Positions 5,807-7,562 of a stretch of DNA of 56,758 bases are shown here, in pieces. The stretch is taken from positions 1 through 56,758 of the IMG/VR virus record IMGVR_UViG_3300046824_000124; one strand, written 5' to 3'. This DNA comes from a virus (lineage: Duplodnaviria; Caudoviricetes). Position 1 is the first letter of the stretch, and each line of letters begins with the position of its first letter. The notes below the pieces were generated by a model. The model was not told the DNA's origin. It saw only the letters and a list, made by a program, of their open reading frames with translations, and ran no database searches. The position numbers and the translations under genes were made by a program.

Positions 5807-6508
5807 ATGGCAGCACGGGCACTGATGGATGCGGGAGTGCAGAAGGAGGCGAGTGACATGGTAACGGCAACGCGGAATGGCAAGGAAACGACGGGGCAGG
5901 CAACGGGAGATGCACGGATCGTGCTGTTGCCCGCGCGCAACATCCAGCGCTGGGAGGTGCGGATCGTCGGGGAAACACCGCTCATCACGCATCGCTTCGG
6001 TGAGGACGCCATCCAGGCGATTCAGGACGCGCAGGGAGGCGCGGCGAAGACGAAGAAACCACCCCGTGACCCGCGGCGTGAGTTCGAGCAGGGGATGTAC
6101 CGATTGCCGGACGGTGGCTACGGCTTCCCGGCGGCGGGCGTGAAACTGGCAATGACAATCGCGGGTCAGCGCGAGGCGGGTGAGAAGCGCACCGAACTGA
6201 TGGGGCGCATCTCCATCGCGTCGGAACATCTGGAGATCATCAGCGACCGCCCACCGGAGATGCGCACGGACCGCGTGCGTCTCTCGGGCATGGCGGGGGT
6301 GACGAGCCTCGCCTACCGCCCCGTCTTCTGGCCGTGGAGCATGCTCGTGCCCATCCGGTTCAATGCGAACACGATCCAACTCGATCAGGTACTCAACATC
6401 CTCGACATCGCCGGGTTCTCGGTCGGCATCGGTGATTGGCGCGTGGATCGCAAAGGCACCTTCGGGCAGTTCAGCGTCGATTACGACTCAATCAGGCAGG
6501 TCGCCTAG
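5807..6508 (+). CDS. RAMP/Cas7-like RNA-binding protein (Vipr-like effector); alternative start 5858
   Basis: N-terminal strand VRIVGETPLITH, GFPAAGVKLAM (compare Cas7/RAMP IPGSSLKG), C-terminal Gly-rich loop GFSVGIGDWRVDRKGTFGQF; directly followed by the pentamer array. Confidence 0.75.
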   Translation: MAARALMDAGVQKEASDMVTATRNGKETTGQATGDARIVLLPARNIQRWEVRIVGETPLITHRFGEDAIQAIQDAQGGAAKTKKPPRDPRREFEQGMYRLPDGGYGFPAAGVKLAMTIAGQREAGEKRTELMGRISIASEHLEIISDRPPEMRTDRVRLSGMAGVTSLAYRPVFWPWSMLVPIRFNANTIQLDQVLNILDIAGFSVGIGDWRVDRKGTFGQFSVDYDSIRQVA

Positions 6509-7020
6509 ACCCGCGCGAGGCGCGGCGAGGCATGGCAGTGTCATGTCGGGTCGGGCAAGTCAGGATAAGCCCGTGAGGGCGCAAGGTGGAGCGTGGCTTG
6601 GCATGGTTAGGTCTGTTTCTGCCTGTTACGGAATGATGGCTGGTTCCCAGCCCACCGGGGAGCAATCCCCGGATGGCTGCGATGGCAGCGCGCGGCCAGG
6701 TGAGTCGAGGCGAGGTTGGGTGAGGTTTGTTGTGGCGAGCTACGGCAGAGGACGACAGCCCGTGAGGGCGCAGGGCCAGGCTTGTCTATGTAGCGCGTCG
6801 TTCGGTCGGGTCTGGTACGTCATGGATGGCTGGTTCTCAGCCCCCCCGCTCCTTCGGGGGCGGGATGGCTGCGAAGGCAGCGCGAGGTGGGGTCGGGTCG
6901 CGCGGGGTTTGGTTGGGCTATGTACGGCTGGGCAAGGAACAATAGCCCGTGAGGGCGCAAGGTAGCGCAAGGTAAGGTTAGGCGGGGCCCGTTCAGGTCG
7001 GGTTTTGCCCGGTTTTGATT
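6509..7020 (+). ncRNA. Array of six GGY-NN pentamer tracts separated by conserved hairpin linkers (putative guide RNA array)
   Basis: Tracts at 6514-6568, 6585-6634, 6689-6748, 6774-6823, 6881-6940, 6961-7015; linker A GCCCGTGAGGGC at 6569, 6758, 6945; three-hairpin linker B at 6635-6690 and 6825-6882. Confidence 0.8.
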
Positions 7021-7049
7021 CGTCGTCAAGTCATCAAGGAGCAGCAACG

Positions 7050-7562
7050 ATGGTCGTCACGGTTCGGTTCCGTCCCGGTACACCCTTCAAGACCGCGGAA
7101 GCGCCGAAGGTCGAGCGCGCACTGGAGCGCGTTGCCCGCCCCGATGGCATGTTCGAACCGCAGGACGTGGTAGACGCCGCGCGCCCTGCATCCTCCGTCC
7201 TGCATCCGTACTTCGAGTGGGACGACAGCGAAGCGGCGCGTGAATATCGGTTGTGGCAGGCGCGTAATCTGACGCGGGCCGTCGAGGTGCGTGTCCTCAC
7301 CGCCGACAACGCTGAACACTGGGTGCCGAAGTTCAACAGCGTCATGGTGCAGACCGACGCCGGCGTCAATGAGCGGCGCTATGCCACCCTCGCGGTCGTC
7401 AAGCAGCAACCGGACCTGATCGCGCAGGTGCAGCAACGCCTTGAGGACGAACTACTGGCCTGCAAGCGGCGCTATGAGGCTCACGCGCACATCCCTGAGT
7501 TCCATCAGCGGTTCGCGGAAGTCTTCGACGCGGTGGATCGTCTCGCGTTGGTCGCTGACTAG
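7050..7562 (+). CDS. Phage protein, putative partner of the RAMP-like gene
   Basis: AAGGAG RBS directly after the array; VVDAARPASSVLHPYFEWDDSEAAREYRLWQARNL motif. Confidence 0.8.
   Translation: MVVTVRFRPGTPFKTAEAPKVERALERVARPDGMFEPQDVVDAARPASSVLHPYFEWDDSEAAREYRLWQARNLTRAVEVRVLTADNAEHWVPKFNSVMVQTDAGVNERRYATLAVVKQQPDLIAQVQQRLEDELLACKRRYEAHAHIPEFHQRFAEVFDAVDRLALVAD

Follow-up and report, generated by a model that had tools for sequence, protein, structure and literature searches.

Does a repetitive spacer between two genes of an uncultured phage encode RNA guides, and does the protein encoded beside it use them? This question is raised by a locus in the IMG/VR virus record IMGVR_UViG_3300046824_000124 (Duplodnaviria; Caudoviricetes), the 56,758 nucleotides of which (the whole stretch of DNA analysed, called the window below) had initially been annotated from their letters alone. 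That initial annotation proposed that a Cas7-like RAMP protein, an array of GGY-NN pentamers and a partner gene form an RNA-guided system, and it pointed to a resemblance to the recently reported VIPR systems. This resemblance was borne out: the encoded protein is homologous in sequence to the characterized Vipr protein of Escherichia phage SUSP1. Judged by its sequence, the region is with high probability a VIPR locus, which consists of a vipr gene, an array of six guide RNAs (vrRNAs) and a vap-like accessory gene. It belongs to this already known family and does not constitute a system of a new kind.

VIPR (Viral Interference Programmable Repeat) systems are RNA-guided DNA silencers, which were first described in 2026 preprints (10.64898/2026.04.26.720920). 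According to the VIPR preprints, they involve phage-borne single-RRM RAMP proteins and vrRNAs of 9–16 YNNGG units with 3' tails, they recognize double-stranded DNA by a code that skips one nucleotide, and they silence the transcription of competing elements. The preprint covers 664 loci, and seven types (I–VII) with varied arrays and six vap genes are distinguished. The VIPR literature (10.64898/2026.04.26.720920, 10.64898/2026.04.26.720927, 10.64898/2026.10.15.759431, 10.64898/2026.10.21.760802) includes a language-model preprint that recovered VIPR arrays. Here, this recently described class of RNA-guided DNA-binding systems was recovered independently from raw sequence. Its mechanism, its code and the argument about its evolution have already been published, and the locus opens no new question. 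What it contributes is a clearly bounded example from a temperate soil phage that is uncultured and high in GC. The locus also defines a large Vipr clade that is paired with one accessory family (FEWDD...YRLWQAR, phrog_15946). The constituents of the locus are the following:

5858–6508 (+): vipr gene encoding a predicted single-RRM RAMP protein of 216 amino acids (PDB 36pp_D match, phrog_4652, AF2 model)
6413–6472 (+): codons of the glycine-rich loop GFSVGIGDWRVDRKGTFGQF, which holds D210-W211-R212 (numbering of the 233-residue product), aligned to SUSP1 D177-W178-R179
6514–6584 (+): putative vrRNA 1, about 10–11 units (6514–6568), then the tail A hairpin (6569–6580) plus GCAA
6585–6692 (+): putative vrRNA 2, about 10 units (6585–6634), then tail B with three hairpins (6635–6692)
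6684–6773 (+): putative vrRNA 3, at most 14 units (6684–6753), then tail A (6758–6773); hairpin 3 of tail B reaches into its first two units
6774–6884 (+): putative vrRNA 4, about 10 units (6774–6823), then the second copy of tail B (6824–6884)
6876–6960 (+): putative vrRNA 5, at most 13 units (6876–6940), then tail A (6945–6960)
6961–7020 (+): putative vrRNA 6, about 12 units without a separate tail, running into the ribosome-binding site of the next gene
7050–7562 (+): vap-like accessory gene encoding 170 amino acids (phrog_15946), beside a Vipr homolog in 86 of 106 loci

The Vipr protein, the pentamer array and the accessory gene

A gene for a protein of about 217–233 amino acids with a C-terminal glycine-rich loop had been predicted, and such a gene is present. 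Its open reading frame (ORF) stops at 6508 and encodes 216 residues from the ATG at 5858 or 233 residues from an alternative upstream ATG at 5807. We infer the start at 5858 because this ATG is preceded by an AAGGAGG ribosome-binding site and because the closest homolog (P0002) begins at the same start. When the protein was compared by phmmer with the sequences of solved structures, the sole match was 36pp_D ("SUSP1 Vipr protein", E 1.3e-6), and a profile of 31 sequences matched this chain with an E-value of 1.8e-10. Alignment of the profile with the annotated SUSP1 gp039 by hhalign gave a probability of 97% (E 9.8e-11, 64 columns). In SUSP1, R138 contacts G2, D177 contacts G1, W178 contacts G2 and R179 contacts Y3 of the repeat (10.64898/2026.04.26.720927). 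These four residues align with R171, D210, W211 and R212 of the present protein, and all four are kept. Three of the four aligned contact residues (R171, W211, R212) are invariant in the family, and G209 is likewise invariant among the 31 homologs.

The initial annotation had also called the protein RAMP- or Cas7-like, and the fold comparisons agree with this assignment; the lack of an RRM or RAMP fold, which had been named as refuting, was not observed. The AF2 model (pLDDT 86.1) contains a beta-alpha-beta-beta-alpha-beta (RRM) core, a thumb beta-hairpin at 151–174 and the glycine-rich loop at 203–222. The Foldseek matches listed at the top were all Csm3, Cmr4, Cas7-11 or type VII Cas7. In VIA-align, which does not depend on Foldseek, the top 27 rows were all CRISPR RAMPs, with Z-scores of 11.6 for Cmr4 (6s6b_I) and 11.3 for Csm3 (9g9a_D). 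No model of Pfam, NCBIfam or PADLOC matched the protein, and among the PHROGs it falls in phrog_4652 (function unknown). On these sequence and model comparisons, we identify the product of 5858–6508 as a Vipr homolog with a predicted RAMP fold of the Cas7/Csm3 type.

The spacer between vipr and the accessory gene comprises 541 nt and holds six GGY-NN tracts, all on the plus strand. By a strict rule these tracts extend from 6519 to 6558, 6585 to 6614, 6684 to 6748, 6774 to 6818, 6876 to 6935 and 6961 to 7015. A period of 5 nt had been described as strict over about 510 nt. The periodicity is real, but it is not strict over this length: the six tracts cover 350 of the 541 nt, differ in phase and are separated by structured spacers. 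The period-5 statistic of the spacer (0.108) is the highest in the window and lies about 9 standard deviations above the values of 1000 shuffles (mean 0.000, standard deviation 0.012, maximum 0.040). Elsewhere in the window only two short tracts were found, both on the minus strand, and shuffled windows yielded 0–2 tracts. Tandem Repeats Finder reported no period-5 array in the spacer. In the VIPR literature an array is recognized by at least four tandem YNNGG (GGY-NN) units beside the gene (10.64898/2026.04.26.720920); here, we found six same-strand tracts of 10–14 units each.

When the tracts were extended to the tails, they parsed into 70 pentamers (42 with an exact GGC or GGT, 26 with one mismatch and 2 with two mismatches). 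The initial annotation had counted 66 (40 + 26). Its statement that the last two bases vary freely held: the entropies of positions 4 and 5 are 1.98 and 1.97 bits and all 16 dinucleotides are used, whereas the GGY positions have 0.72–1.31 bits, and position 2 is a G in 60 of the 70 units. Between paralogous tracts the GGY positions are 55–74% identical and the NN positions 14–45%, as would be expected if the guides diverged after duplication of a cassette. Tract edges are uncertain: tail B and tracts 3 and 5 overlap, each time by the first two units of the tract.

For a survey of homologs with 25–76% protein identity we assembled 106 loci; IMG/VR contributed 24 of them, metagenomes 80 (the best of 266) and genomes 2. 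On the same strand as the gene and within 1.5 kb of it, 69 of the 106 loci carry a tract with 8 or more units of which 60% or more are exact; the corresponding numbers were 0/106 for the opposite strand and 1/106 after shuffling. A motif-free measure, the period-5 statistic within 1.5 kb of the gene, exceeded the highest value found elsewhere in the window in 94 of the 106 loci, and several of the 12 loci below this threshold have less than 900 nt of flanking DNA. Arrays adjoining the homologs had been proposed as a check. With an array at 94 of the 106 loci, homologs without adjacent arrays, named beforehand as an outcome that would speak against guide RNAs, do not refute this reading.

Downstream of the Vipr relatives with 64–76% identity in three loci (L028, L025, L040), no convincing ORF is present for more than 2.5 kb (636–3165 in L028). 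This stretch consists of degenerate pentamer tracts with about a dozen interruptions by a hairpin followed by AGGAGCG, for which there was no Rfam match. No accessory gene was found near these three relatives in the DNA examined.

The downstream gene at 7050–7562 had been predicted to carry its own ribosome-binding site, and an AAGGAG is indeed located 9 nt upstream of its ATG. Its product belongs to phrog_15946 (function unknown), and 21 homologs were detected, which share the motif S-P-L-H-x-x-F-E-W-D-D...Y-R-L-W-Q-A-R. Where a member of this family adjoins a Vipr homolog, it nearly always lies downstream. The accessory profile also matched gp41 of Gordonia phage UmaThurman and gp52 of Mycobacterium phage Saal (hhalign probabilities of 99.6% and 99.5%). 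For the AF2 model (pLDDT 91.9) Foldseek returned nothing at E ≤ 0.001, and Pfam, NCBIfam and PADLOC gave no match for the protein. In VIA-align, residues 12–118 had winged-helix-type matches (Z 5.6–6.6), and residues 120–170 form a helical hairpin in the model. This is only a suggestion of a DNA-binding protein, which would be consistent with the description of vap genes as predicted DNA-binding proteins or enzymes (10.64898/2026.04.26.720920).

Hairpin tails and a possible two-vrRNA cassette

Five of the six tracts are followed by a hairpin tail. Tail A, after tracts 1, 3 and 5, is the hairpin GCCC-GUGA-GGGC with a 4-bp stem and a GUGA loop. Tail B, after tracts 2 and 4, is a module of three hairpins, and in single-sequence folds the middle hairpin differs in sequence between the two copies (B1, B2) while its pairing is kept. 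The spacer as a whole is a super-repeat of about 190 nt in three copies. In the closest clade whose arrays are clean (L001, L002, L031–L035) most tracts are capped by a hairpin of 10–14 bp with ACC after the stem. The stems of these relatives vary from copy to copy and the loop is usually GUGA or GUGG, again in single-sequence folds. From the sequences, tail A looks like a minimal form of this longer element. Rfam gave no match for the array and one chance-level row across ten related loci; since tail B has no Rfam match, it is not a known ribozyme, the hammerhead included.

The array architectures named in the main text of the classification preprint are tail-capped type II arrays, staggered arrays, hammerhead-interspersed arrays and single vrRNAs (10.64898/2026.04.26.720920), and an alternating-tail cassette is not among them. 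It is conceivable, although we consider it rather doubtful, that the locus represents a new VIPR architecture, in which a cassette of about 190 nt with two vrRNAs is present three times and the two vrRNAs carry different tails, one a GUGA hairpin and the other the three-hairpin module. If this were true, phages would add and drop guides by recombination between tails and would need neither Cas1 nor Cas2 for it, and the three-hairpin module could serve as a previously undescribed processing element (nuclease site or ribozyme).

In an independent rhizosphere run (X3) we observed a contig of 707 nt that joins position 6567 to position 6757 and skips 189 nt, which is exactly one cassette. In the part that is missing (6568–6756) lie tail A, vrRNA 2 including its tail B, and the vrRNA 3 tract. 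The joint falls at the tail A repeat, where the two sides have no more than 16 letters in common, and most of the missing part is without read depth in this run. This single low-depth contig may be a natural variant of array length, and its junction hints at gain or loss of guides by recombination between tails.

Known relatives, proposed mechanism and alternative readings

The locus shares with that of SUSP1 (type II; PDB 36pp) a phage-borne RAMP protein with the same GDWR sequence in the glycine-rich loop and the YRP thumb arginine. It also shares GGY-NN vrRNAs of about 10–14 units with structured 3' tails and a two-gene layout without CRISPR array or cas genes. However, Vipr is alignable over only about 65 C-terminal residues, the order here is vipr–array–vap whereas in SUSP1 vipr and vap1 are adjacent with flanking vrRNAs, and the accessory gene is not detectably related to gp038/vap1. 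Moreover, two alternating hairpin tails (in single-sequence folds) stand in place of the pseudoknot tail of the SUSP1 clade (10.64898/2026.04.26.720920). Type II (the SUSP1 / P. fulva clade) is recognized by vap1 and the pseudoknot tail. With simple hairpins as tails, an accessory gene without detectable relation to vap1 and a Vipr alignment of only 64 columns, the locus is not of this type.

Among cultured phages, Vipr homologs occur in Gordonia phage UmaThurman (gp39–gp41 locus, 35% identity) and in Mycobacterium phage Saal (gp51–gp52, 31% identity). Both phages are temperate and high in GC, encode the same accessory family and carry same-strand GGY-NN arrays adjoining the gene. In contrast to the window, their arrays are staggered, an architecture named in 10.64898/2026.04.26.720920, with tracts overlapping by 1 nt and without hairpin tails; in Saal the array lies upstream of vipr. 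The vipr and accessory genes of both phages are annotated as hypothetical proteins. This pairing in cultured Gordonia and Mycobacterium smegmatis phages would offer tractable systems for the clade.

The UmaThurman coding sequence gp40 (L143 2592–2915, "hypothetical protein") is filled by six abutting GGY-NN tracts with 1-nt overlaps. These tracts extend over L143 2584–2894, which corresponds to about 33354–33664 of NC_031249.1, and are flanked by gp39 (Vipr homolog) and gp41 (accessory homolog). Rather than a protein gene, gp40 most likely represents, to judge from its sequence, a staggered array of vrRNAs. In Saal (NC_023580.1) the gap between gp50 and gp51 (the Vipr homolog) holds five abutting GGC-NN tracts (L144 1649–1871); immunity and antirepressor genes are nearby, and the accessory homolog is gp52.

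Closer, uncultured relatives were found in IMG/VR and metagenome contigs (L001/L030, L002, L031–L035), in which vipr, 3–5 vrRNAs and vap occur in this order and Vipr identity is 52–62%. Unlike the window, they have a single tail type with stems of 10–14 bp and fewer off-consensus units; the tail loops of L032 read UUGA/CUGA, and the spacers of L035 measure 13 nt and lack a hairpin. With the Cas7 family (Csm3, Cmr4, Csf2, Cas7-11 domains) the protein shares the RRM core, the thumb hairpin and the glycine-rich loop, but sequence identity is only 8–17%. The footprints differ as well: 5 nt with three sequestered bases in VIPR versus 6 nt with one flipped base in the Cas7 family (10.64898/2026.04.26.720920). 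A class 1 CRISPR-Cas effector, which would comprise a repeat-spacer array together with cas genes (large subunit, Cas5, Cas6, Cas1/2), is not supported: the window contains no CRISPR array (no tandem repeat with a period above 10 nt) and no PADLOC cas model matched among the 10 proteins scanned around the locus. The earlier description as a minimal stand-alone system agrees with both results.

By analogy with SUSP1, a similar mechanism is very likely here. The parts of the locus, all on the plus strand, probably lie in one rightward transcript with the upstream genes. The array would be transcribed and cut into six vrRNAs, and one Vipr protomer would occupy each pentamer, neighbouring protomers locking G1, G2 and Y3 and exposing N4 and N5. 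That each subunit holds the constant triplet and the NN dinucleotides form the guide had been proposed in the initial annotation and matches the published mechanism (10.64898/2026.04.26.720920, 10.64898/2026.04.26.720927). The approximately 7–12 exposed dinucleotides of each vrRNA would then pair with double-stranded DNA reading NN-x-NN-x, with one base skipped. The resulting filament would keep the bound gene from being transcribed; this gene would most likely belong to a competing phage, satellite or prophage of the same host. The accessory protein, with its possible winged-helix domain and helical hairpin, would assist on the DNA.

A natural target would match a guide by the 1-nt skip rule at 80% or more of the NN positions. 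Among the 106 related loci no natural target stood above the controls (NNx patterns). The scans of IMG/VR used exact seeds of 16–18 bases, covering 8–9 guide units each, and are insensitive and limited to one collection. For the guide T1 we obtained 19 stretches, the best with 20 of 22 NN positions. For T5 the first seed gave none, whereas its second seed gave 15, each of them in DNA of 30–48% GC; T3 gave 2 (in DNA of 31% GC), T6 gave 1, T4 gave 8 and T2 gave 3. No full-length guide match and no contig hit by two guides emerged from these exact-seed scans, and in a complete 44-kb phage with a 19/22 match to T1 the other five guides remained at control level.

Eight of the T1 stretches carry one 32-mer (L108, L111, L113, L114, L117, L118, L120) or a one-base variant of it (L124). 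The exact copies match nine consecutive units of vrRNA 1 (units 2–10, 18/18 NN positions, 19/22 overall) and the variant matches eight units. Given 19 seed hits, these recurrent matches are within chance.

Several observations weigh against the VIPR reading. SUSP1 Vipr aligns by sequence over the C-terminal 60–70 residues only, so that the N-terminal GGY-reading residues reported for SUSP1, which are H17 and also K33, E71 and M72 (10.64898/2026.04.26.720927), fall outside the alignable part. The comparison of the accessory protein with gp038/vap1 gave an hhalign E-value of 0.46, and its winged-helix resemblance scores below Z 8. Self-target scores were not above those of shuffled guides; an absence of self-targets is likewise reported in 10.64898/2026.04.26.720920. 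The array as a whole folds no better than shuffles (z −1.54), which is expected for unstructured guides, yet gives no support. RNAalifold on a MAFFT alignment of the tails returned no more than 3 pairs because the stems were misaligned, and the covariation of the tails therefore rests on single-sequence folds without formal scoring. Tracts 2 and 4 have the NN dinucleotides of their last three units in common but not the triplets; these units may belong to the tail, and some guides therefore possibly comprise only about 7 units. Finally, 28 of the 70 units depart from GGY, more than in the relatives L001 and L002.

These 28 units, the irregular tails and the tailless last vrRNA would also fit a decaying or inactive VIPR relic, the guides of which have drifted (40% of the units off consensus) and no longer direct binding. 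However, both ORFs are intact, the key residues are invariant and the GGY positions are far more conserved than the NN positions between paralogous tracts. In addition, the locus is near-identical in contigs of two runs (possibly the source samples) and largely present in a third, and internal degeneracy of vrRNAs is frequent according to the methods of 10.64898/2026.04.26.720920. We consider a relic improbable. An even smaller probability attaches to a role of the array other than guiding, either as decoy or sponge that titrates the Vipr of a competitor or as structured RNA that the RAMP protein processes in a Cas6-like manner. Stand-alone vrRNAs are reported to redirect the VIPR of another element to decoy sites (10.64898/2026.10.15.759431), and no role has been assigned to the three-hairpin tail B, which is without a match in Rfam. 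Here, however, the array is accompanied by a Vipr and an accessory gene of the same locus, as in guide-using systems, and the four Cas6 rows in VIA-align (ranks 34, 37, 40 and 43) have Z-scores of 6.1–6.8, well below the 11.6 of the Cas7 family.

The array might, at last, be a G-rich intergenic region that arose by chance, or a protein-coding repeat, beside an unrelated RRM protein. An ORF of 200 amino acids (6363–6965) does span most of the array, and a single stop interrupts one of the three frames. Against this, the repeat period is 5 nt and not 3, the tracts change phase, and the similarities of this ORF are weak (E 2e-4 or worse) and all located over the conserved 3' end of vipr in another frame. 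The period-5 signal lies far outside the shuffle range and recurs beside the homologs, and the probability of this alternative is negligible. An array of guide RNAs used by Vipr is the reading that we prefer.

A weak terminator-like site was located at 6981–7009, within putative vrRNA 6. Four such sites were found versus 1.7 expected, and this one is therefore possibly due to chance.

Phage genome and setting of the locus

The window is a 56.8-kb virus record with 63% GC, the ends of which overlap by about 128 nt: positions 1–128 recur at 56631–56758 with a 6-nt difference within an AAAAAG run, which gives a genome of about 56.63 kb. From this overlap, the window is probably a complete genome, either circularly closed or terminally redundant. 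It encodes a DnaC-like helicase loader, a large terminase, a scaffold protein, a major head protein, a tape measure protein, an endolysin-type peptidase, a large serine integrase and three DNA methyltransferases. The structural genes together with the integrase identify the source, as far as gene content tells, as a temperate tailed soil phage. No tRNA gene was found in the record. The best cultured-phage matches of terminase and Vipr are Gordonia and Mycobacterium phages (31–38% identity), which gives a weak hint of an actinobacterial host. All four sequencing runs listed as carrying the locus are soil or rhizosphere DNA, and no RNA run is among them.

The VIPR locus sits in a run of plus-strand genes between methylase/replication genes and the terminase. 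One further feature directly precedes it:

5533–5805 (+): cysteine-rich, very basic ORF of 90 amino acids, which ends 2 nt before the ATG at 5807

This ORF resembles endonuclease VII and HNH PHROGs only weakly (E 2e-4 to 1e-3). It is probably not a VIPR component because no homolog of it was seen beside Vipr in the 106 related loci.

The surroundings of the locus carry a heavy anti-restriction and homing load. The DNA methyltransferase genes are located at 3514–4464, 8802–10637 and 43601–44248, one of the three being fused to a ParB-like domain, and HNH endonucleases are encoded on the minus strand at 2784–3308 and 46293–46922.

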